Assembly (NCBI GenBank): GCA_951406725.2
Contig: OX597820.1
Span: 113,832,001-113,896,000, forward strand
Source of the DNA: Octopus vulgaris
Lineage: Eukaryota
Reading direction: 5' to 3'
Length of the DNA stretch: 64,000 bases
Position numbers and translations under genes: made by a program. The notes below the pieces were generated by a model. The model had not been told where the DNA came from. It searched no databases and saw only the letters and a list, made by a program, of their open reading frames with translations. Of this stretch, positions 13,546-64,000 are shown one piece after another; position 1 is the stretch's first letter, and the number at the start of each line of letters is the position of its first letter.

Positions 13546-16377
13546 TTAACACACACACATACACGAAATGCATTCGATCAGTGACTAACTCAATCATAAC
13601 TTAAATAACAACAGTATTTCACTAAAATTGATGTCAGCAGAGATCAACTGAAGGATCTTGATTTTGCTATTTTTCTTCCTAATAAGCTTATAGTTGCTTA
13701 GCCCAAAGTCAACCTTTGGGTTAAACAACTCATCAAAGTGCTTCTAACTGTGACCATCACGTAGAGTAATATCAAGGTATACAAATATGCCAGTTTTTTC
13801 CTTTTTTATGAGACAGTTTGAGAGAGAGTTGTTTGCTACGCCTAGCAAGTTAGGTTTCTTTCAGTTTCCCTACTATCAGTTATACACAACTTCTTGAATG
13901 TGTATTGTGCAGTCGAGATCAACCGTCATAACTCGCTCTACATCGATGGTTCTTAAAGTAGGTCTTAGCCTCCCCTTGGTGGCATTATGAACTCACAAGG
14001 GAGCGATACTTGTCGAGGGGCTGCCATTAGGAGGAGATGCTGACTGTTTAGAGATGGTCGTGATTTTTCTTAAATATATTTAAACCAATTATTTGTATTT
14101 CAAACCCATTTTCATAACGAAAAAATCTTCGTCGGGATTAGAATATATTTTATTATTTTTTTCCGGCAAGCAGACCTCATGACTGATTCAATATAATTTC
14201 ATCGCTTAGTTTAGTAATCTCTGTAAAATCTTATCCGAAGAGACTCAAGACCGTTAGGATCTATCTAAAAAGAGGCTCATACTGGACACGATATTAGAAG
14301 AAAATATAGATAATAAATCACTGCATAAAATTGGGTTGTTTGATTAAAATATATGGGTACAACTTAAGCGTGCGGTCTACTGGAGAATCCATAGTATATG
14401 CTGTGAAATAACCTGTTCTGGCTTATGATTAACGTTTAGGGTTAGGTTTAAACTGCTGAAATGTAAATGGCCAGGAAGACCACATGTGGCACCTATGATT
14501 GGTGTTATTTTTCGAAGCAAACAACATGCGAAGATGTTTACAAACATCATTCCATAAAGGTGAGGTAGAGTGGCTAAGCAACAAAAAGATTAAGAAACAC
14601 AACTCTACACCAACCTACCTAAGTGTAAAAGTATATCACTAAGTGTTTGAATATTCGTGGTGAAACAGTAAAATTCTATTAAAGGGAAACAACTTAATTT
14701 CAAGGGAGATGACTCAGAAATGATTAAATGTGATTTCTAACCTGGACAATGCTTTTTTGATGATGGTTTAGCGAAGTGGTAAATGATGTAATGTGGCTAA
14801 AGCCCTGGTAATATATGTTCCGAGTCAGGATAACGAACATCAAGAAATGTGATAAGATAAAATTGAGTGCAACATTTATTCCGACGCTAAAAGAAAATAC
14901 AGAAACTGGTATAACATGAATTTGTCAAATACAATACAGAGTTTCTTGAAGTGCTCCTTGAAGATGAACGCTGGGAAAAGAGAGCCATGTGACAAGGATT
15001 CCTGCTAGTTTTCTCCTCACTGAAGCTGCAAAGCGGAATAAAACTGCTCTCATACCGAAGATCCAAACTCGCGCATTACGACCCACCTATCTAAGGAATT
15101 AACAGGAAAAGCTCCCCCTAAATAGCTGATGTTGGGATGCTTGGCTAGTCTATCATGTTAAGGGGTAGAGAGTCCACGTAAAGCTAGATGGACTGGACCA
15201 TCAGGTGATGAGCCAAAATGGGTACCAAAAGGTAAAGAGGCAAAATGCGGATACCCAAAACTAAAGAGCGAACATGCTTCTGCTACAATGGTATATAAAT
15301 TTGTTCTTATAGATCTATCCAATATCTAAGTTGCAATACAAGAATATCAAATCGCCCGTAAGGTACTTTAATTCTATCGACCCGGAAGGCTAAAAGGTCA
15401 ATAACTAAATACCGCAGACATTGTCCAGAGTTTTAACGATGTTGTCAATTCACTCGTACTTAAGTTATCTACCATAGGATTAACGTAAAATCCTCTCACA
15501 GTCATACAAGTGCAGTGGAATGACAGAATTGTTAAAGAGTTGGCAACAATGCTTTGCAATATTTCTTCCAGTGGTTTCCGCTCTGAGTTCAAATGCGCCA
15601 AAGTCAACTTTGTATTTTATACTTTTATATAAAGTACCAGCTGAGTACTGGAGTCGATATTATCAACTAGACCCTACCGTTCCCTTAAAAATTTATGGCC
15701 TCGTAGATTTAAGCTTTTTGTAAAAATTTAGTTATAAACTAAAGCGATGCTCTAATTTTCAGTATTTGCCGTAAGTGCATTGTAAAAGGAAAGCTATTAA
15801 TATGAATTTACGACTTACGCTTCCTAGAAAAGACAGGAACGTCACACATTTGCATTTTCTATAAATATTTGTTGTAACAAACCGATATCAGGACTTAAAT
15901 CGAAACATTACGAAATTTCGAGTTGTGATGGGCGATTGATCTAAAGGGAGACAACTTTAATAAGTAGTCACATACTAAACCCCAAAATTATTTAATGCGA
16001 AGGCACACGAGTCCAAATACGTCATTTAATATCAATATCTTGAGTACTGAAAATCTCCCAGAAGTACAGAATTTAGGAGGTATCAGGCATCGATTAGGCT
16101 CGTCGGGTACTAGACTTCACACTACCATTTGCAATATAGCTGCCAAGTTTTAAAACTTTTAACAGTCACTACAAACCAACAGGTTCATCATAATTGTCCT
16201 TCATTTTATCTTGGGTAAATACCTTTTCCTATAACCCTGGGCCGGAAATTGAAAGAAGTCCATCGTGTATGTGTGCTCAACTCCACATCTATGGTGCTGG
16301 TTTGTTTCCCCATATAACTTACCAGTTTGGCAAAAACGGACTGACAGAATACCAGGCTTCAAAAAATAAGTATTGGA

Positions 16378-16788
16378 CATTATTTACATTCGACAGATGT
16401 CCTCATCTTGTTTGTTAACACAACGTTTCGGCTGATATAACCTCCAGCCTTCTTCAGGTGTCTTGGGGAAATTTCGAGCCTGGGTTCTCATTCCTAAGGT
16501 ATTTTTCGATATTATTATTATTATTATTGTTGTTGTTGTCACTGCTTGGAATCGAATTCGGAATCTTGGGGTTAGTAGCCCATGCTCTTATCCACTCTGC
16601 ATAATAATATCGAAAAACACCTTAGGAATGAGAACTCAGGTTTGAAATTTCCCCAAGACACCTGGAGAAGGCTGGAGGGTGTATCAGCCAAAACATTGTG
16701 TTAACAACAAACAAGATGAGGACAAATATCCGTCGAATGCAAATAATAATGTACATAATTCCTCGTCTCTTAAATATAGAACTGTATT
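16378..16788 (-). mobile_element. Non-autonomous retroelement: tRNA-derived head, (AAT)n and hammerhead-bearing Penelope-like repeat, with an inverted second copy
   Basis: 12-bp direct repeat ATAAGTATTGGA at 16366-16377 and 16789-16800; inverted arms at about 16378-16518 and 16601-16752; tRNA-like segment at 16538-16602. Confidence 0.75.
16417..16462 (-). ncRNA. Minimal type-I hammerhead ribozyme (Penelope/retrozyme type)
   Basis: Minus strand reads GACAC-CUGAAGA-A-GGCUGG(aggttata)UCAGCC-GAAA-CG-UU-GUGUU: intact core, stems I and II, and palindromic AACGUU in place of stem III. Confidence 0.75.
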
Positions 16789-17230
16789 ATAAGTATTGGA
16801 GTTGATTTGTTTGACCAAAACCTTCATCATTGCTATTCTACTACAATGGCTTCTGCTCCTCTAAAACCAAGTGCCATTTCATTAAGGACGGCTCATGTAC
16901 CTTTTTCTCTTCACCTCTTATCTCTACTATGTTTCACCATTAACCTTGAAAATTTCCAAATGTAATGCAACGCCTCTTCCTCCTCATTCACCTAAATAAC
17001 TATCATAACACTCTTAAAACCTATTAAGGTAATACAAGGTAGCAGATACACAATTAGTCAGTAAGCTGATAATACACCAATTTATATCTCATCTGTATTG
17101 CTCAACCACCATTAGCATCACATTTACATTTTTTTCTCCAACACCAATACCATCTGGCTTGCAAATTAAAAGAGAAAACAAGTATTTAAGCACAAACCAC
17201 AACATATAGAAAAAATTTTTTAATTTTTCT

Positions 17231-18373
17231 TTAAAATGAATAACCAACTATATCTAAAACATTGGCTCCAAGAAGTTGGAAATGTTCTAAGGCACTTTGA
17301 AGAGCTTCTGTGTTGTGCTTAATGTCCTTTCTGCACATCAGTTCCAATGAAATATTTTGCTGATTGTCTTCAGTTTTTCCAGGATTACTAACGGAATTAT
17401 CAGAACGAAATGTTTCATCAGGAACAGTTGATGTCTGTTCTTCAGTAACAGTTTCATGTAAAACATTACATTCTTTCTTTAATTTTTCTTTGTGTTTTCT
17501 ACTCTTTGGAGCAGTACATTCTTCTGTAGAGACTTTATCAGACACTCCTGCAGACACTGAATCTTCTTGGTTAAGATTATCCATTTCTTCTCGAGATCTT
17601 TTCTTTTTCTTTTTTTTTCTTCTTGTGTAAAAATCTTCATCTCTAGTTTCTAAATCTTTTTCTATTTCAACATTAAGCACTGCTGTACTTTGCTCCCCAC
17701 AACTGGGAACTGTACTTTGGTTCTCAAGATTAACAAGTGCCGGACTCTGCACCATAGAATTATGAAGTACACTTTTAGAATCAACCACCTCACAATCTTG
17801 TTCCTTCTTTTTCTTCTTCTTCTTTGACTTCTTTTTCTTTGCCTCACCAGTTGTTGAACAAACAGTTTCTCCATGACTTACATCATTCTCACCATCACAG
17901 TCAACAACATCAGATGTGCTTTCCTTGCACTTTTTATGCTTGTCTTTTTTCTTCTTATGTTGAACCATCTCAATACACTCATCTCTCATCTCAACAGATT
18001 GGTTTTTATAATTATCTACAGATTCAGAATTATGCTCACCATCTACATCAGTTATTAATTCACATGTTGCCTCTTCTTCAAATTCCTCATCCTTAACCTT
18101 CTTTTTCTTTTTCTTCTTTAACTTCTTAACAGCCTCCTCGGGGCAGTGGTCAACATCCATAGTAGAATCTGACTTATCTTTGATAGTTTGCTCAGGGCAG
18201 TGGTTAACCTCCATAGAACAATCTAAGTCTGTAGGTTCTGTAACCAGAGATTCCTTGTGTGCAGAATCACTGCCTCTTACTTGTAAATGTGCTTCTTTCA
18301 TTGCTTTCATTTTCATAGCAAAATATTCCAATATACTCTTCCCAGTATTTATGGTAAAATCTCCAGTAGATTC
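17231..18373 (-). CDS. PINX1: PINX1 terminal exon 5 (K/E-rich low-complexity tail)
   Basis: Acceptor TTTCTAG is in frame with the 366-aa ORF; [10 protein letters not shown] motif, poly-K tracts, TAA stop. Confidence 0.85.
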   Translation of the reverse strand, partial: ESTGDFTINTGKSILEYFAMKMKAMKEAHLQVRGSDSAHKESLVTEPTDLDCSMEVNHCPEQTIKDKSDSTMDVDHCPEEAVKKLKKKKKKKVKDEEFEEEATCELITDVDGEHNSESVDNYKNQSVEMRDECIEMVQHKKKKDKHKKCKESTSDVVDCDGENDVSHGETVCSTTGEAKKKKSKKKKKKKEQDCEVVDSKSVLHNSMVQSPALVNLENQSTVPSCGEQSTAVLNVEIEKDLETRDEDFYTRRKKKKKKRSREEMDNLNQEDSVSAGVSDKVSTEECTAPKSRKHKEKLKKECNVLHETVTEEQTSTVPDETFRSDNSVSNPGKTEDNQQNISLELMCRKDIKHNTEALQSALEHFQLLGANVLDIVGYSF

Positions 18374-21347: not shown

Positions 21348-23506
21348 TACATGTGTGTGTATATATATATATATGTATATGTATGTATGTGTGTGTGTGT
21401 CTTTGTTTGTCCCCCTCATCATCGCTTGACAACTGGTATTGGTGTATTTGTGTTCCTGTAACTTACCAGTTTGGCAAACAGACCAATATAATAAGTACTA
21501 GGCTTAAAAATAAGTCCAGGGATTGAAATCATCATCATCGTCGTCATTGTTTAACGGCCACTTTCCATGCTCGCATGGGTTGGATGGTTTAACGGAGAAC
21601 TGGTATGCTGGTTTTTGCTAGGTTAACTCTAAAGCCCTTCAGCTATTAGAGCAAGGTCACCAGCACAGAGGAGCTCCCAGAGGCAGCCTGTCTTGAATTC
21701 CTCTGTTATTGCCTGATGGACTATGATGAACAAGAGGGGCTGAGGACTTCTACCCTGGGCTTGTACAGCTTTCACTAACCACTCATCTATTCCTAGTTTC
21801 CGCATTGACCACCAGATAAGCGATTGGAGGACCCTGTCAAAGTCTTTCTCCATGTCAATGAAAGCCAGGTACAGAGGTGTATCTTTGGCTATGTATTTCT
21901 CCTGCAGCTGTCTTACTAAAACTATAGCATCAGTGGTACTTCTCCCAAACTGCATCTCCCTAACTCTCTCTCTTTAATTGGGCTATGACTTTCCATGACT
22001 TTCATCACTTGATCCAATAATTTAATACCTCTATAATTATTTCTATCTAATGCATCACCTTTACCTTTGTAGCAGTTGACTATGGTGCTGCTACACCAGT
22101 CATTAGGTATGATTCCTTTGTGTACCACCTGGTTAACTATACGGGTGACTAGCCTATAACCTACACTGCCAGATATTCTAAGCATTTCAGCAGTGATTGC
22201 TGATGAACCGGGGGCTTTCCCTGTCTTCATATCCTTAATTGCTTTATCTACCAAGGCACTGTCAATTCAGATTGCTGGTCCCTCTGTTAGGTTGACATTT
22301 GTCAGACTCTCTTTCTCCCATTCATTCTCTTCATTTAGCAACCTTTCATAGTGGCATCTCCAAGTCTCTCCCTTTGCAGCATCATTAAATGCAAGTGAGC
22401 CATCATTCATGTAGACACATTTCTCTGAAATGTTCAACAGTACTCCAGCATGGCCGCAGTCTAATGACTGAAAACAAGTAAAAGAATGAAAGGATAATAA
22501 TTAAGATAACTTACTGCACACGTCTTTTGGCCACACAAGACTTTTCTACCAACTTGCTAACATCACCTGTATCAGCATGACTGACACTAGTGTGGGTTTC
22601 ACTCAAGCTGCTCAACAAGGAGTTAAAATCATCCTGGTGACTTATCAAGTTGTCACCAAAGACGTTTTTAAAACCAAGCCCTGTAAAGTCATAACAGGAA
22701 AATAAATTAACACATTTGGTATGGGAAAGTGAAGTGTAGAGAGGAGTGACAATAGCAAAGTTATGGGTGTAGAGAGAAGAGTCAATGATGACAAAGATAA
22801 GAGTGTAGAACATTGCAGTGTCATTGAACAATTCCTGTTGATTCAGTGGAATGGAAGATCTTCATAGTTTGTTGATGAGGATTCAGTTGCTCATCCCTGA
22901 ATTGAATGTGTAGTGTTCCCTTAACATTTTTCTCAAGCAGAATCACTGGTATACAGTGAATGTGACAAGGCTTTTGAATTACAAGTACAATTTATGTCGG
23001 GCTTCTGTACAGTATCAGTCTACCCAAGGCCATGCCCCAGTATGGCCACAGTCTAATGACTAAAACAAGCAAAAGATAAAAGACTCAGTTTTAATCACAA
23101 GACATTATAAAAGCTCCTTCACTGGTCAGCAATGTCCTGTCAATGATACCTAGTTATGGTCATGTAACCCTAAAATTTCAATCTTCATACAAGTGGTTTA
23201 CATTTTTAATGAGGAGTAAAGAATCTGCTGAAGAATATTTGGCTACTACATTAAGCAGATCAAGTCACAATGTAAAAGGCTCCTTCCTTTGCTTAGGTCA
23301 CCTCGATTTGCTGCTACACTGAACAAGTGATCTCATGATCAGTATTTCAAAGGCAGTAAGTTCTTTTGACAAAGAGATCTGGCACCCACCACATGGTTTC
23401 AGGTCCAGTGCCACTGCATGGCACCTTGGGTCTTCTACTATAGACCCAGGCTAACCAAAGCCTTGAGTGCATTTAGAAGATTGAAACTGAAAGGAAGATT
23501 GTCATA

Positions 23507-23539
<33 letters not shown>

Positions 23540-26500
23540 CTGTGTGTTGTGTCTGCATATTTGTTTACATTTGTACTTCTACAAAAGTTCCAACCTATAA
23601 GCAATGATGTCAGTTCTCTTGTCAACAAATTATCCACTCACTTCATGCCACTGAAGCCATGTGGAATAACAGGTAAGGATTTTAACCCTTTCGTTACTGT
23701 ATTTATTTTGAGATGCTCTGTGTTTTTTTCAATTACTTTAATTATAACAAAGAATTTAGTAAAATAACTTAATTATCATTCAGCTAGTGTTAGGAGCATT
23801 AATTGTGACTAAGGTTTGGTGGGAGATTTTAATTCAAAACTTATGAAAACAAGACATTTGTACTACGGAGCCAGAGCCGGTCTCAGCTGGGTTGGTAACA
23901 AAAAGGTTAAACAATAGTTCAATAGTAATCATCTAATCCATGATGATAAAAAGAAATGCATGTAAAACCCTTCAAAACCTGTCCCACTAATTTGCATAGC
24001 TGTTTTCAAATCATTAGGAAATTTACTATAAGAGATTTGGTATATGCTGGAGCTGAAGAATTTACTATGTAAGATGTTTACAGCAGCTCAGAGCAAAATA
24101 TGAAATGTTAACCTATCAGTCAACATCATAATTTAGCAAACTATAACACAACATCATCATGGTAAGAACTAAATGAAAGGAACAAATGGTAAGAACTAAA
24201 TGCAGCACATGTTACAAAATGGTCACTGATTTCTAAAGGTTATGAAAGAATTCCTAAGTGCAAGAGCGGTTAACTTACCTTTGCTATCACTCTTCTTTGT
24301 GACTTTCACATGTTCTTTGCAACCGTCTTCTCGCAGCCCCAAACCTTTACCTTTCTTCCAGCCAAACTTCTCAAGCATCTTCTGACCAAACTTACTTTCA
24401 TCTGACAAAGGAAAAATAACAAATATGGATGCTGCAAAATAGTCATTTAACACCCATCTTCCATGCTGGCATGGGTTGGACAGTTAGACAGAATGCAAGC
24501 CATAGTATTGAGCACCAATATTGTCTTTGGCATAGTTTCAACAGCCAGAGGACACACTTCCTAATGCCAACCACTTCTCAGAGTGTACTGGGTGATTTTT
24601 TTTTTTTTTGACACTAATGAGGTCACCAAGTAACTCACAAGACAAGATCCTTCAAACAAGTTGAGGTGTAGTATTAAGAGAGCTCGTTTTGTATCAGGTA
24701 TTGACAGGTTCAAGTATGACAGAGTGACAAGAACAGGTGTCTTGCTGTAATGAAGATATATGGCTACCAAACAGTAAAAATTTACAATATAGTCAATATA
24801 ATCACAAGTATGGATGTTTAGAAGTTGGGTTCAAGCCCATATTGTTTCAGGTTGCTCCCACTGAGCAAGAGCCTTCTACTAGATTTGTGGTATCAACTGG
24901 GGTTCATATAAGGTGTTTGGGAGTCCATGCAACAAAATAGTAAACTGGGGATCCACAATAGCATTTTAAGGACCCCTGGAAAAAATTATGCTTTAGCTGT
25001 ATTGGTATGTATTACATGAAACAGCTAGGTTTCTTTCTCTAGCATTTTCCATAGTTCAACCTACACAGGTTAGAATGTGAAAAGCAAAATAGGAATTTTG
25101 AAAGAAGTTTCTATGAAACTAGTTTTTAAATATCGAATGGTTATGGGGGTCCACCAGAATAAAATAGTAATCAAAGGGGTCCTTAAATAAGAAAATGGTT
25201 TTAGCCTAACACACAACTATTTCTGCCTTAAAAAGATTGCTTTTGACCAGAGACTAGAACTTTGTCTTTATATATATATATTTCTTTACTACCCACAAGG
25301 GGCTAAACACAGAGGGGACAAACAAGAACAGACAAACGGATTAAGTCGATTACATCGACCCCAGTGCGTAACTGGTACTTAATTTATCGACCCCAAAAGG
25401 ATGAAAGGCAAAGTTGACCTCGGCGGAATTTGAACTCAGAACGTAACGGCAGACGAAATACGGCTACGCATTTCGCCCGGCGTGCTAACGTTTCTGCCAG
25501 CTCGCCGCCCTTCATATTGTCTTTATATATATATACACACACACACACATATGTATGTATGTATGAGAGGATACCCAAAAGCAACTGACAATTTCTCTGT
25601 TGTAATTCAGGCTTCTGCCACTAGAAGCCACTTGATGTGACCCTCAGGCATCAGTCTGTCAACCGGTAGCATCGAATGAAGTCATACTGCCATGGGAAGT
25701 GTCTTTGTTTTGCAGTGCTTCTCCACTGTTCATCGATTTTTGCAATGGCTGAAACAAAGGAACAGCGTGCTTCTGTGAAATTCTTTCTGCCAGGGAAAAC
25801 GGAGGCCAAAACAGTTGTCATGCCTCAAACAACTTACAAGGAAGCTGCCATGAGCAAAACACAAGTTAACAAGTGGTTTTCATGCTTTAGGAATGGTCAC
25901 TTGTTGCTTGAAGACCAACCTCATTCAGAGTGACTGTTGACCTCCTGAACAAAAATGAAAACATCACGAAAATTCATGAACTAATTTTAGAGGACCATCA
26001 GCAAATAATTGATGAACTTGTTGATATGACTGATGTGTCCTGGAGCTCCTGCCAACAAATTAAAAAGAGTTGCAGCAAGATTTGTGCCCTGCCCGTTCAC
26101 GGAAGATCAAAAGCACAGATGCATTGTATTTCAAAGATCCAGGATTGTGTAGCTGATCGGAGATTTGTAATGCTTCAAATCACAAAATATGACCACATAA
26201 ACTGAGGTGAAATTTGGAAAGTCATGTAGGTTCACAACTCTGACTTGTAATATCTTGATATTTCCAGCATTAAAAAAAAATCTTATCTTTCCTAAGAAGG
26301 CCTAAAAGATTCAGAAAATGTTTAACAATTGTGGCAAAAGTGAATCTAAAGACACAATTTTTGATAATGCAGCCATGTTAATATTTATAAGAATGATGTT
26401 TTATGTAGGCACAAGGCTTCAAATCTGGGGGTAAAGAAACAATCGATTACATTAACTTTAGTATTAATCCAGAAGGATGTACAGTAAAGTTGTCCTCAGT

Positions 26501-28726
26501 GAGAGTTAAGCCCAAATCTTGAAAAGCCAAAATAAACACTGTTCACTGCCAGCCATGCAGCCTCAAAATTTCAGAATGTGATAGAGTCAGGTGGTCTTTC
26601 ATTTTAAGCATGCCAGTGGCACATAAAAGACACCATTCCAGTGTGATCGTTACCAGCTTCGCCTTACTGGCACTTGTGCCCAGTGCTAGTAGGGTGCTAA
26701 GAGCACCATCTGAGTGTGATCGTGAGCGGCTAACTGGCTTCCGTGCCGGTGGCATGTAGGAGGCACCATTCGAGCGGGATCATTACCAGCATCGCCTTAC
26801 TTGGCATGTGTAAAAAACAAAAAATTCGAGCGAGGTCGTTGCCAGTACCGCCTGACTGGCCCCCAAGCTGGTGGCACGTAAAAGCACCCATGCACTCTCG
26901 GAGTGGTTGGCGTTAGGAAGGGCATCCAGCTGTAGAAACACTGCCAGATCAAGACTGGAGCCTGGTGCAGCTATCTGGTTCGCCAGCCCACAGTCAAACC
27001 GTCCAACCCATGCTAGCATGGAAAGCAGACGTTAAACGATGATGATGATGATGAACCATTTCATTCCATCCTATGTCATATTCCTCTAATGGCAAAGGCA
27101 ATGAACTGGCTGAATTATTAGTACACCAGGCAAAATGCTTAGCAATATTTCGTTCATCATTATGTTCTGAGTTCTAATTCCACCAAGATCCACTTTGCTT
27201 TTCATCCTTTCGAGGTCAATAAAATTAGTATCAGCTGAGCACTGGGGTTGATGTAATTAACTGAAGCCCCTCCCACTAAAATTAGTATCAGCCGAGCACT
27301 GGGGTTGATGTAATTAACTGAAGCCCCTCCCACTAAAATTACTGGCCCTGTGCCAAAATTTGAAACTAATATCATCCAAAGGTTGGGCTCAACACTGATA
27401 ACACAGAATCATATAGCATACTCGGGAAGCTTGGAAACTGCAGTATTCGGTTTCCAGACTTTCTACAGAATATTTGTGCTAAGTATGACACACAACGCTA
27501 ATTTTAGCACTGCTTCCATCATTATTAAAGAATATATATAAATATATAAATCATACAATTTTACGTAGAGATTGTTAACTTTAACAATACTCAGAAACAG
27601 GCTAGAATCGGTACTACTTAAGAAGAGTGGCCCCGGTGCGCGCACTCGCGTACTCGCGCTAGCTAGTCGTGAATAGTCGATCCTACAACGACTACCTAGC
27701 AAAGTAAATAAAACACAAAATAAATAATTTGTTTTACACAAAGTAAATAAAACACAAAAACAAAATATATATTTTTTTAAACAAAGTAAATAAAACAAAA
27801 ATACAAAGTAAGGATCGACTATTCACGACTAGCTGGAGTGGATGCGCAAGTATGCGAGTGCGCGCACCGGGACCACTCTTCTTAAGTAGTACCGCTAGAA
27901 TCAAATTACCAGTTGCGTACTAGGATCGATCTAACCGTCTGGGACCCCTCCCTAAAAATTTCGGGCCTTGTGCCTAGAGTAGAAAAGTATAGCAGTACTT
28001 CCAGGATTCGGCCCATCTCTCGTCCGGGAGATAAAAATAAACTATTGAAATATGCTTTATTCTTTGGGGGATAAAATTTTAATTTTCGAAAATGTTACCC
28101 TTTGGGGTACATGTATGAATTATTTGAGAACACGGCGAAGTCTTTCGGAAGAGTTGTGTATATTTGAAGATTTGACTGCTATTTATAGATCCAGCGATCT
28201 CAAGTAACACGTGCTGGGGGGGAAATGTGTCTACAATGAGGGTCCATATAATATTTTAACATATTTTGTAACACAATTCCTAATAAATTTTAATTACGAA
28301 AATTTAAGGTAAATCTAATTGGATAGGATTTTTAAAAACACAGAATGGGTACGAGGGTCCAGTTGAATAAAATAGTAATCAAGAGGGTCCAGCGGCAAAA
28401 ACAAAAAAAAATAGTTGAGAACCACTAAGTTAGATAAATTGGTGATCCTTTAAATTAAGGTTTTGAACCAAACAAACAGTAAGAAAACACATAATTCGGC
28501 GAACGGTACTCGTAACGAAAGATCGCCAATTTTTTTTTTTTTGCGTAACTTCGGTATAGGTACCGGATACATTTCAAGAAAGTGGGTTTTTGGCACTGTT
28601 ATGCTTTTAGCTGTCAGAAGTGAAAGTCGTCAACTTCGTGTATTTACGTCAGATTTATACCTTCGTTAATTTACGTACCACCACGCTGTTAGGTTTATAA
28701 AACTATATATATATATATGTATACAC

Positions 28727-31521: not shown

Positions 31522-52603
<21,082 letters not shown>

Positions 52604-61399: not shown

Positions 61400-64000
61400 T
61401 TTTCAGAGTTGGCACTGTCAATGTTGGTATACTGAAAGGAGACAGGTTGACGTATGCTGCATACAAGAGGTAAGATGGAGAGGTGCTTCAGGTAGGATCC
61501 TCACAGGCAAGGCACATAGGTATAAAGTCTTCTGGCAAGGTAACATGGATGGTGTAGGCATACTCCTTGCGAAGAAATGAGTGGATAAGGTCATAGGGGT
61601 TGTCAGGGTATGCGATAGAGTACTTGAGCTCAGGCTAGTCCTACAGAACGGCACAGCTACAATTATCTCCGCCTATGCCCCACATGCGGGGCTACCAAAT
61701 GATCAGAAGGACCACTTTTATGATACCCTTCTACAGGCTACCTCAAAGACGAGTGGCAATGACCTCATCTTTGTGGCTGGAGACTTTAATGGGCATGTTG
61801 GGTGGGAATCGGGTATCTTCACTGGGGTACACGGTGGCCATGGTATTGGCACCCAAAACGATGAGGGAGCTAGACTACTGGAGTTCTATGATGCATGTAA
61901 CCTTTTAATCTGCAACATTAACTTCAGGAAGCCAGACAGCCACCTTATAACCTATCAGTCAGGGGACTCTGCTAGCCAAATAGATTTCATCCTCACCAGA
62001 CAGTGGGACGCAGGGTTGCTCTTAAATACAGAGACCCTCCTGGGTGAAGAATGTATGCCTCAGCATAGGCTAGTCATTAGTGACTTTAGACTTGAGGCCA
62101 GAAGGATACCAAGAAGCAGACCAATCCAGAAAAGAAGGATTTGGAAGCTAGAGAACCCTTCACATGGTCAGAGATTTAGGGACATCCTCATCAAGAAATT
62201 TGATAAAAGGGAGGAAGAGCTACAGACGTCGGACATAGAAAGTAGCTGGAAATTCCTACGGGACAGCTTGCTGAGTGCCACAGACCAAGTCTGTGGATGG
62301 TGCAAAGTCCCTTCAAGACCTAGAGTTACGTGGTGGTGGAATAGTACAGTAGACAAAGCCATTAGAGCAAAGAAACAGGCCTGAAAAGCCTGGAGGGACG
62401 GGGGTAGCAGGGAACTGTACCAGGTAGCCAAAAGGGAGGGTGGGCGGCAGGTATACATAGCCAAGGGTGAAGCAGAGAAGAACTTTGCTAATGTCCAGCG
62501 ACGTGAGGACCAAAGAACTGAGGTATTTCGGATTGAAAGACAGTGTGTGAGAGAAAATTGTGATGTCACAGGAGAGAAATGCGTCCGCATGGATGATGGT
62601 GCACTTGCTTTCAGTGATTCTGAAAAGAAAGAAGCTTGGAGAAGCCATTATGAGAGACTGCTGAATGTGGAGAATGAATGGGAGGAGGAGAGCCTGCCAA
62701 ATGTTGACCCAGTAGAGGTACCAGCTATCCCAATAGACAGCTCCCTAGTAGTTAAAGCATTTAAGGGTATGAAGCCAGGAAAAGCCCCCTGCCTATCAGG
62801 AATCACTGCTGAGATGCTTAAAACAGCTGGTTGTGTGGGCTATGGCCTAGTCACCTGCATTGTAAACCAGGTAGTTCATAATGGAGTCATACCCAATGAC
62901 TGGCATAGCAGCACCATAGTCAACTGCTACAAGGGTGATGCTCTAGATAGAAATAACTACAGGGGTATTAAACTGTTAGATCAGGTGATGAAGGTCACAG
63001 AGATGGTCATAGCTCATCTCATTAGGGAGAGAGTTTGCTTAGATGAGATGCAGTTCGGTTTTGTGCCGGGTAGAAGCACCACTGATGCCATATTCCTGGT
63101 TCGACAACTGTAGGAGAAATACCTAGCTAAAGATAAACCCCTCTACATGGCTTTCGTGGACTTGGAGAAAGCCTTTGACAGGGTCCCCCGATCCCTTATC
63201 TGGTGGGCGATGCAGAAACTGGAGATTGACAAATGGTTAATAAGGGCTGTACAGGCCCTATACAGAGAGGCCAGCAAGGTTAGGATTGGCAATGAGTATA
63301 GTGAAGAATTCCGGGTAGAAGTAGGGGTCCACCAAGGTTCAGCCCTCAGTCCCCTTTTATTCATCATAGTCCTCCAGGCAATAACAGAGGAACTCAGGAT
63401 GGGTTGCCCCTGGGAGCTCCTCTATGCTGATGACCTGGCCCTCATAGCAGAATCACTACCAGAACTAGAAAAGAAATTTCGGGTGTGGAAGCTAGGTTTA
63501 GAATCAAAAGGCCTTAGAGTCAATGTGGCAAAGACCAAAGTTCTAGTAAGTAGGAAGGCAAACACACCACACACCACTTCAGGTAGGTGACCCTGCTCGA
63601 TCTGTAGAAAAGGTGTAGGTAGAAACTCCATAAGATGTACCCAGTGTAAGCTATGGACACATAAGAGGTGCAGCACCATCAAAGGAAAATTAACCGAGAG
63701 GATAGCTTTTGTGTGCGGCAGATGCACAGGTGCAATAGACACCACAGATACTCAGAAAACAGATTCCATTACACTCCTAGAGGAAAAACTAGAAGTAGTT
63801 GATAGCTTCCGCTACCTAGGTAACCAAGTTAGTAGTGGGGGTGGATGCTCAGAGAGTGTTACCTCTAGAATAAGAATAACCTGGGCAAAGTTCAGAAAGC
63901 TCCTACCCCTACTGGTGACAAAGGGTCTCTCGCTCAGAGTGAAAGGTAGATTGTACGACACATGTGTGCAAACTGCCATGCTTCACGTTAGTGAAACATG
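61400..64000 (+). mobile_element. RTE-clade LINE ORF (APE endonuclease and RT with embedded PHD finger), disabled, continues past the window end
   Basis: [47 protein letters not shown] and LLYADD. In-frame stops at 61578, 62382, 63111 and 63588. Confidence 0.92.

Follow-up and report, generated by a model that had tools for sequence, protein, structure and literature searches.

By definition, SINEs depend on LINEs, and it took until 2024 for Pol III heads to be generalised for LTR-dependent elements. In the genome of Octopus vulgaris, where SINEs make up 11.6% and Penelope-like elements (PLEs) 6.83%, an insertion of 411 bp raises the question of which enzyme copies a repeat that carries both a tRNA-type head and a hammerhead-bearing terminal unit. 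The insertion and its flanking duplications occupy positions 16366-16800 of the window, namely the whole stretch of 64,000 nucleotides from contig OX597820.1 that we analysed. We report that it belongs to a repeat family of very high abundance in octopus, in which a tRNA-type head is joined to a Penelope end bearing a hammerhead, and that this repeat is likely copied by a Penelope enzyme rather than by the LINE enzyme of ordinary SINEs. In our estimate, the probability is about two in three that the element is non-autonomous, has a Pol III head and owes its mobility to a Penelope-like enzyme acting in trans.

Structure of the insertion and its target site

The original prediction described a 12-bp duplication around an insertion that splits a host SINE, and its coordinates check (Table 1). 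The 12-mer ATAAGTATTGGA has two exact occurrences in the window, both at the borders of the insertion, and 12-mers repeat 400-450 bp downstream at only 70 of 63,500 positions of the window. An intact copy of the host SINE at 41395-41515 joins both flanks without break and carries the 12-mer once, in agreement with the split. Upstream of the element, at a distance of about 440-850 bp, is the stop codon of PINX1, whose exon is 99% identical to that of O. sinensis. LINE fragments are also present in the window.

Table 1. Coordinates of the insertion, its parts and neighbouring features in the window
Feature	Position	Strand	Remark
Host SINE, left half	16295..16365	+	start approximate
Target-site duplication, left copy	16366..16377	.	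12-mer ATAAGTATTGGA
Direct arm, Penelope-type terminal unit	16378..16510	-	stops at first 3' end class, tail absent
Minimal type-I hammerhead	16417..16462	-	motif inspection against PMC4209133 descriptor
(AAC)n(AAT)n linker	16511..16537	-	
tRNA-type head	16538..16600	-	5' end cut inside A box
Inverted 5'-truncated arm	16601..16747	+	linker remnant and unit
41-bp extension (Penelope 'tail')	16748..16788	+	one end only; second 3' end class
Target-site duplication, right copy	16789..16800	.	12-mer ATAAGTATTGGA
Host SINE, right half	16801..16825	+	end approximate
PINX1 last coding exon	17231..18373	-	context, outside element
Solo head and (AAT/AAC)n	49402..49513	-	unit absent, no clear TSD

Within the duplication, the minus-strand order of head, linker, unit and hammerhead agrees with the prediction, and the inverted 5' copy contains, as claimed, a decayed hammerhead at 16657-16702 on the plus strand. 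The alignment of the two arms spans 147 columns, in which there are 11 substitutions, 4 of them of CpG type, and 7 gap letters. The inverted arm also carries the 41-bp extension, which is absent from the direct arm and had been overlooked at first. Both the neighbouring copy, inverted and 5'-truncated, and the restriction of the tail to a single end match insertions of endonuclease-positive (EN+) PLEs (Fig. 2, PMC8557442). From head to tail the element measures about 300 bp, under the 700-bp limit of SINEBase; it is non-autonomous, and no frame for a reverse transcriptase (RT) with GIY-YIG was found within the 411-bp insertion. Both the A box and the B box of this copy are damaged relative to the family majority, the B box (16557-16548) by one substitution. 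The solo copy of the head predicted near 49420-49511 was recovered with 86% identity over 86 nt (E 5e-23).

Recurrence of the head and the terminal unit in public contigs

To survey the family, contigs of four public runs (X1, X7, X10 and X14) under three organism labels were aligned to the window. X1, X10 and X14 are DNA-type, and the RNA-type status of X7 is a guess. Of the 189 joints, 15 were listed; the corresponding figures were 12 of 123 for between-letter rows and 24 of 1,361 for loose ends. In contigs of the four runs, the head and the arm were 10^3-10^5 times deeper than the flanks. In three runs, the summed depth at position 16557 of the head, which is not equal to copy number, exceeded that of the flank by a factor of 22,000-28,000. 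A near 1:1 ratio of head to unit was rejected as a stoichiometry, because the unit contigs are split over two arms and the ratio used one arm only; with both arms summed, the unit is about 2-5 times deeper than the head (in depth bins of X1, up to 4.7 million for the unit versus 1.1-1.5 million for the head).

Compared with the standard A- and B-box consensus, the majority letters in all four runs restore the B box (16557) and the A box (16591, 16597 and a loose end at 16596), and the contig majority likewise restores the hammerhead core. Thus the family majority holds, at the level of motifs, an internal Pol III promoter with consensus A and B boxes. The 5' start of the head is marked by the loose end at 16596 in 136, 90, 111 and 17 contigs. 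A competing explanation makes the head a passenger. An ordinary SINE would once have received a Penelope end in its (AAT)n tail, and the resulting chimera would have multiplied via Pol II read-through transcripts and the Penelope machinery, Pol III having no role. Penelope proteins do start reverse transcription internally in vitro and tolerate 5' truncation of the template, and the sole RNA-type run is the one whose status was guessed. However, the family retains consensus boxes and a defined 5' start common to many contigs, whereas read-through templates would leave ragged 5' extensions, and the sense strand of head, linker, unit and tail in the insertion copy has no run of four T. We regard the passenger head as unlikely, though it is the best of the alternatives.

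At the other end of the repeat, a first class of 3' ends falls at 16747 (381, 362 and 418 contigs in X1, X10 and X14) and a second at 16786-16790 (75-132 contigs per listed row), so that two classes about 40 bp apart are present in all four runs. The sequence past these ends consists of AT-rich, unrelated flanks (agreement 0.39-0.51) with no simple-repeat or poly(A) tail. About ten of the 15 joints listed among 189 connect a direct arm to an inverted one, with differing truncation points. These inverted arms, two classes of 3' ends and AT-rich flanks are marks of Penelope integration, and the head lies inside them.

Co-occurrence of the head and the unit in other copies was found in two forms. 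Before the unit, (AAT)n is present in 119-188 contigs per DNA-type run, and one contig among those listed, X7 contig 27, bridges arm, linker and head across 16445-16579, with 57 and 33 letters flanking the linker. Its 7 substitutions and its depth of 45, versus 5-9 in the flanks, indicate that it represents copies other than the locus at 16366-16800. Rows falling on the linker repeat were excluded from the listing. Moreover, four junctions at positions that differ from those of the locus put the 5' end of the head against an inverted arm: 16578>16716 and 16581>16699 in X14, where the missing 5' letters of the head stand between head and arm, 16594>16748 in X1 and 16600>16667 in X7. Where a side is stated, as for two of the head joints, it holds 27-28 letters, under the caution level of 30. 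Together, the contig and the four junctions support the proposal of a Penelope-mobilised SINE, since the head and the unit stand together in other copies and the family has the anatomy of Penelope insertions.

The junctions bear also on the notion of two independent families, a SINE (head and AAT tail) repeatedly struck by short, ATT-preferring Penelope end-pieces, so that the linkage reflects target preference and the locus is a local chimera. The cutting of the Anolis PAc protein at ATT, the solo head at 49402-49513 and the greater depth of the unit all speak for such a history. On the other hand, insertion into a SINE tail would place both arms 3' of the head, whereas at the locus the head sits between the arms within the target-site duplication and is 5'-truncated at the inversion point, and the four other junctions put its 5' end against an inverted arm. 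Two separate families are, in our judgment, slightly less probable still than a passenger head.

The hammerhead motif and searches of sequence databases

Minimal hammerheads of PLEs have CUGANGA and GAAA boxes, a helix I of 4-5 bp, a helix II of 6-8 bp, an extra nucleotide between 9 and 10.1, a G10.1-C11.1 pair and palindromic 15.2/16.2 (PMC4209133). All five features listed there are found in our motif, which has the core boxes, helices I and II of 5 and 6 bp, an extra A (16450), the G10.1-C11.1 pair at 16449/16430 and the palindromic positions at 16425-16424; the predicted cut lies between 16422 and 16421. The Rfam search did not return the hammerhead, even at E<=10. At the gathering level Rfam gave 0 matches in the whole window, and at E<=10 only models of long-hairpin microRNAs, reflecting the inverted repeat, and noise. 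Similarly, ARAGORN found 0 tRNA genes and Rfam no tRNA at E<=10 with the two decayed copies of the head as queries. Thus the labels "hammerhead" and "tRNA" rest on inspection of motifs.

In its natural context the hammerhead does not form in the predicted fold, and the z-scores (-1.22, -0.07 and -0.28) were not significant. A catalytic dimer can be drawn, with a predicted -24.3 kcal/mol. Two monomers reach -26.0, and the best predicted dimer, at -29.2, lies about 5 kcal/mol below the catalytic one. The helix pairs show no variation between the two arms (11/11). One helix-II pair, read indirectly from peptides, appears as W/Q in 5/8 scored units of the family and as R/R in 27/77 units of a sister family, corresponding to U-A versus C-G, and both changes are reachable by CpG decay. 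An apparent excess of inverted pieces starting at the predicted cut (16698; 3 of the 15 listed joints within 5 nt versus about 1 expected) was not accepted, because it is confounded by mismatches of the insertion copy at 16690 and 16695.

Among protein sequences, P0003, a gene model of O. bimaculoides, contains the unit and tail in translation, and P0012 holds an inverted pair with no head between. A search for an autonomous partner through a frame across hammerhead and tail gave only short spurious ORFs, the longest of the 85 peptide matches having 195 aa; the openness of the frame was given no weight, because it is what protein libraries select for. Spurious ORFs across unit, linker and head yielded no candidate in a protein search, an uninformative result because relatives found by HMMER were missed by its index, and ESM Atlas gave only scores <=0.82. 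When collections of viral, metagenome and prokaryotic genomes were scanned for exact patterns, each gave 0 matches, as expected for an animal repeat.

These data weigh upon the suggestion, part of the original prediction, of a non-LTR retrozyme, whose tandem copies would self-cleave to monomers and, after ligation into RNA circles, propagate through rolling-circle reverse transcription. The type-I hammerhead and the small AT-rich unit would suit it, non-LTR retrozymes derive from Penelope terminal repeats, and the sister family has head-to-tail repeats of 43 codons in 15/73 peptides. However, each insertion has a single intact hammerhead and its second copy is inverted, unrelated flank follows the 3' ends, none of the 11 peptide matches from the hammerhead-bearing octopus family holds two units, and no back-joint was found among the 15 of 189 joints listed. 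As no tandem arrays were seen, the circular-RNA idea is left without support, and we consider it improbable.

How the repeat may be copied

The mechanism that we propose for mobilisation by a Penelope-like enzyme starts from the observation that head, linker and unit lie inside a single target-site duplication at the locus and recur together elsewhere. The A and B boxes would drive a Pol III transcript, which would run on into the flank because of the lack of a four-T run on the sense strand. A Penelope protein may then bind unit and tail and nick AT-rich DNA, and reverse transcription may begin at one or the other of two internal positions of the transcript, separated by about 40 nt, as modelled on PAc, whose two start sites of reverse transcription are matched by the two 3' end classes. 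Such an internal start at two sites would make a defined 3' end or poly(A) unnecessary. The inverted arm at the 5' junction is observed and would arise by addition of a second, 5'-truncated copy. The hammerhead was presumably inherited from the terminal repeat of the partner and would need a dimer or help from protein; it is likely dispensable, because a cut would part the head from the priming end. In addition, whereas autonomous Penelope elements must be arranged in tandem to be expressed, the internal promoter would release a single copy from this need.

The least credible explanation is a LINE-dependent SINE of the ordinary type that contains a Penelope fragment by chance. A head with a simple-repeat linker is usual for SINEs, and LINE fragments are present in the window, but the 3' end of the repeat has neither a simple-repeat nor a poly(A) tail, and its two end classes, its tail on a single side and the frequency of inverted arms are all traits of Penelope elements.

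Comparison with known retroelements

We tentatively propose, at slightly less than even odds, that the repeat is a true Penelope-dependent SINE, a third kind of retroparasite with a Pol III promoter beside LINE-dependent SINEs and LTR-dependent TRIMp3, that its octopus copies number in the tens of thousands owing to an internal promoter and the internal priming of Penelope, which together render one copy of 300 nt self-sufficient, and that the family was previously undescribed. A search of the literature, with Repbase and Dfam outside its scope, found no Penelope-dependent SINE. If true, it would fill the remaining slot beside the LINE- and LTR-dependent kinds and offer a natural minimal substrate of 300 nt for mapping the recognition by Penelope enzymes in trans. 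It would also make it possible to test if retrotransposition requires the hammerhead, is limited by it or is unaffected, and it would mean that, for part of the repeat fraction of octopus genomes, pipelines file one element as separate SINE and Penelope pieces.

The closest relatives in anatomy are EN+ PLEs with minimal hammerheads (PMC4209133, PMC8557442, PMC11167929), which share the minimal type-I hammerhead, the inverted 5'-truncated neighbour, a tail of 30-40 bp on one end and AT-rich flanks, whereas the octopus element has no RT/endonuclease ORF and a tRNA-type head with A/B boxes replaces the truncated ORF. The tRNA-derived SINEs (SINEBase, PMC3531059) are likewise short, non-coding, dispersed and abundant, with an A/B-box head and a target-site duplication; in octopus, however, the simple repeat is internal rather than terminal, and the 3' part and insertion marks indicate a Penelope-like instead of a LINE partner. 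SINEBase includes three families from octopus, due to Ohshima and Okada (1994). Known high-copy repeats that combine a Pol III-type promoter with a type-I hammerhead are, in the parts of the sources consulted, often tandem and cleaved from multimers, so that the promoter comes last in the monomer, on its 3' side, and no Penelope partner, inverted arm or tail is described there, whereas octopus copies are dispersed and the integrated unit begins, on its 5' side, with the head. Non-LTR retrozymes (PMC7229834; bioRxiv 10.64898/2026.07.22.740005) are also non-autonomous, hammerhead-bearing and related to Penelope terminal repeats, but the sections consulted define them by circular RNA and by a minimum of two hammerhead units in tandem, head to tail, and describe no tRNA head. 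Non-autonomous Chlamys elements such as MRC1 (PMC8557442) are PLEs with 3' ends common to autonomous ones, but, in the portion consulted, hammerheads are mostly absent and a Pol III head is not described. Finally, Helenus, Ajax and Cassandra (TRIMp3; PMC10886601) are non-autonomous, LINE-independent retroelements with a captured Pol III promoter derived from a small RNA, as proposed for our repeat, but LTR retrotransposons serve as their partners (two LTRs, PBS, PPT and a target-site duplication of 4-5 bp).

Anatomy of the insertion

It was proposed that the element is an insertion in a host SINE flanked by a 12-bp duplication, and our analysis confirmed this. Exact search of the window found the 12-mer only at the two sites flanking the element, and an intact copy of the host SINE has both flanks contiguous with the 12-mer present once. 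This indicates that the 12-mer is a true target-site duplication. The predicted order of a tRNA-type head, an (AAC/AAT)n linker, a unit and an inverted 5' copy was also recovered: between the duplications, the minus strand reads inverted arm, head, linker and direct arm. The inverted arm starts with a linker remnant and extends 41 bp beyond the end of the direct arm. The 147-column alignment of the two arms contains 11 substitutions, 4 of them CpG-type, and 7 gap letters. Because the head lies between the arms, within the duplication and truncated at the inversion point, it moved with the unit at this locus. The solo copy of the head was found as well, with no unit and no clear duplication around it; it sits within an intron of the kinase gene. 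A fragment related to the broken LINE lies near 21629-22266.

Features in the window
Feature	Position	Strand	Remark
Target-site duplication	16366-16377 and 16789-16800		12 bp
Direct arm (unit)	16378-16510	-	minimal type-I hammerhead
Head	16538-16600	-	truncated within A box at 16600
Inverted arm	16601-16747	+	5'-truncated reverse copy of unit
Frame of ~51 codons from ATG	16628-16786	+	spans hammerhead and tail
Tail	16748-16788
PINX1 (tblastn)	29783 down to 17234	-	five pieces; stop at 17231
Protein kinase gene exons	38793-52603		Pfam Pkinase at 40841-41158; presumably Polo-like
Different SINE head	47166-47219	+	consensus A and B boxes
Solo head	49402-49513		86% identical to the element's head; simple-repeat run like the element's
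Broken LINE	61581-63587		endonuclease and reverse transcriptase domains

The last coding exon of PINX1 is 443 bp from the element, and this exon is 99% identical to Octopus sinensis and 89% to O. bimaculoides. Together with the unit-derived peptides in O. bimaculoides gene models (below), this assigns the window to an octopus near O. sinensis. The element (16378-16788) lies 440-850 bp downstream of the stop, with head and hammerhead on the PINX1 strand. The positions of ATTAAA (17219, 16025, 15991, 15956) and AATAAA (14875) signals suggest that the 150-bp fold-back may fall within the PINX1 3' UTR, where it may be an editing substrate. Contigs of X7, a public run that is RNA by guess only, cover both flanks of the element. 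The right-flank contigs of X1, X10 and X7 reach 26-29 letters into the tail, while X14 contig 24 (organism E) fits the right flank only from 16792, after 35 unmatched letters, which hints at an empty site in organism E, the joint itself lying outside the entries listed.

Other copies of the family

The 801-bp stretch with the element was present, whole or in part, in 20 of the runs listed, which come from 11 studies and carry five organism labels. Contigs from 4 of 24 listed runs were aligned at 80% likeness, namely X1 and X7 (organism A), X10 (D) and X14 (E). The entries listed comprise joints (15 of 189), between-letter entries (12 of 123), loose-end entries (24 of 1,361) and pieces (32 of 74,457), with linker rows left out. 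Summed depth of head and unit, which is not copy number, was 10^4-10^5 times that of the flank in X1, X10 and X14 and ~10^3 times in X7. In all four runs the majority letter differs from the locus copy at 16557, 16591, 16597 and 16665, and the majority letters restore both promoter boxes, B and A, as well as the hammerhead core; the box consensus used here is the standard one. A loose end at 16596 (136, 90, 111 and 17 contigs) supplies the absent 5' letters of the head, and (AAT)n precedes the unit in 170, 119, 188 and 18 contigs. Beyond the 5' end of the family at 16596-16600, a short self-complementary stretch follows, clear in X1, X10 and X7 and less so in X14; this could be a hairpin at the 5' end or a head-to-head inversion. 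Contigs leave the stretch at 16747 and at 16786-16790 and then continue, at the first of these sites after a few further family letters, into long, AT-rich and mutually dissimilar sequence (agreement 0.39-0.51); the dispersed copies thus have two classes of 3' end ~40 nt apart. About ten of the joints listed connect direct and inverted arms at differing truncation points.

The expectation that head and unit occur together elsewhere was borne out among the entries listed. One X7 contig covers 16445-16579, with 57 and 33 letters flanking the linker. It carries 7 substitutions and 10 gap letters and has a depth of 45 versus 5-9 in the flanks, which points to an origin from other copies. Four joints connect the 5' end of the head to an inverted arm: 16578>16716 and 16581>16699 in X14 (in both cases separated by 5' letters of the head itself), 16594>16748 in X1 and 16600>16667 in X7. 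Their positions differ from those of the locus copy, though two have sides of only 27-28 letters. Such junctions would not arise if Penelope ends had repeatedly inserted into a SINE tail. On the other side, the parts also occur separately (P0012, a protein-search match, and the solo head), and unit depth is ~2-5 times head depth with both arms summed, a ratio compatible with 5' truncation plus inverted arms and also with headless units.

The hammerhead

The direct-arm hammerhead has a 5-bp helix I, a CUGAAGA core, one extra A, GAAA, a 6-bp helix II opening with G-C and palindromic C15.2/G16.2, features that appear in the list of Cervera and de la Pena for minimal hammerheads of metazoan Penelope-like elements (PMC4209133). 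Of 11 core-pattern matches across the window, it alone shows both helices on inspection. The hammerhead is assigned by motif inspection; the Rfam search left it undetected. Its activity is doubtful as modelled: the 66-nt fold has a z of -1.22, the predicted catalytic dimer reaches -24.3 kcal/mol versus -29.2 for the best dimer, head-plus-unit RNA is predicted to adopt another fold, and the whole insertion is predicted to fold back on itself (-226 kcal/mol). Minimal Penelope-like hammerheads have low activity in vitro (PMC4209133), and that of PAc, the Anolis Penelope system, cleaves only with protein and is dispensable for insertion (PMC11167929). The predicted cut lies 44 nt and ~90 nt upstream of the two 3' ends, so cleavage would separate the head from the priming end. 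The ribozyme is likely an inherited and dispensable part.

Search for a partner and a sister family

An autonomous Penelope sharing the unit, which had been anticipated, was not found; protein search with the frame across hammerhead and tail gave only 85 short spurious ORFs, none >195 aa. By scoring, 11 belong to the element's family, 73 to a sister family (among P0002-P0085) and one has no assignment. The sister family, absent from the window, shares the hammerhead-to-tail module (~47% identical at the peptide level) and the end point with the element's family and differs upstream. Unit-derived peptides lie inside two O. bimaculoides gene models (P0001, P0003). P0001, a dystrobrevin beta isoform model, starts with the unit peptide, by exonisation or as a mis-modelled exon. 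The ~51-codon frame has one stop in the locus copy, at a CpG-type change, and recalls the PAc ORF, which begins within the hammerhead; no long protein beginning like this frame was found.

Consecutive units in head-to-tail order and circular RNA are the defining traits of non-LTR retrozymes (PMC7229834 and bioRxiv 10.64898/2026.07.22.740005), and the suggestion that the element is such a retrozyme is unsupported, since its arms are inverted, the family ends are dispersed, no back-joint occurs among the joints listed and tandem peptides were seen in 0 of 11 matches. The sister family, in which 15 of 73 matches contain repeats of 129 nt in head-to-tail order, is the better retrozyme candidate.

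Proposed mechanism and known systems

The anatomy, the joint occurrence of head and unit, their abundance, the dispersal of copies and the consensus promoter boxes are observed. Beyond these, we propose, with a probability of about two in three, that the element behaves as a SINE whose partner is Penelope-like. Pol III transcription would run through linker, unit and tail (the sense strand of the locus copy has no four-T run), a Penelope-like protein would recognise the RNA, priming would be internal at two sites and a truncated copy would then be added in inverted orientation. The locus copy itself is probably dead because its A and B boxes are both damaged. The element falls outside SINEs in the strict sense on LINE partner and terminal tail, and outside retrozymes on tandem units. 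Among the papers listed in literature searches, judged by title, opening of the abstract and selected passages, none described a Penelope-dependent SINE or this octopus family; a repeat so abundant is probably already in automated repeat libraries under some name.

A 9-bp stem between tail and unit, around the first end class, is predicted, though not above shuffles, and is reminiscent of the PAc stem-loop. The two 3' end classes of the family correspond to the 'tail' signature of Penelope-like insertions (Craig et al., PMC8557442), which Frangieh et al. (PMC11167929) attributed to reverse transcription starting internally at two sites.
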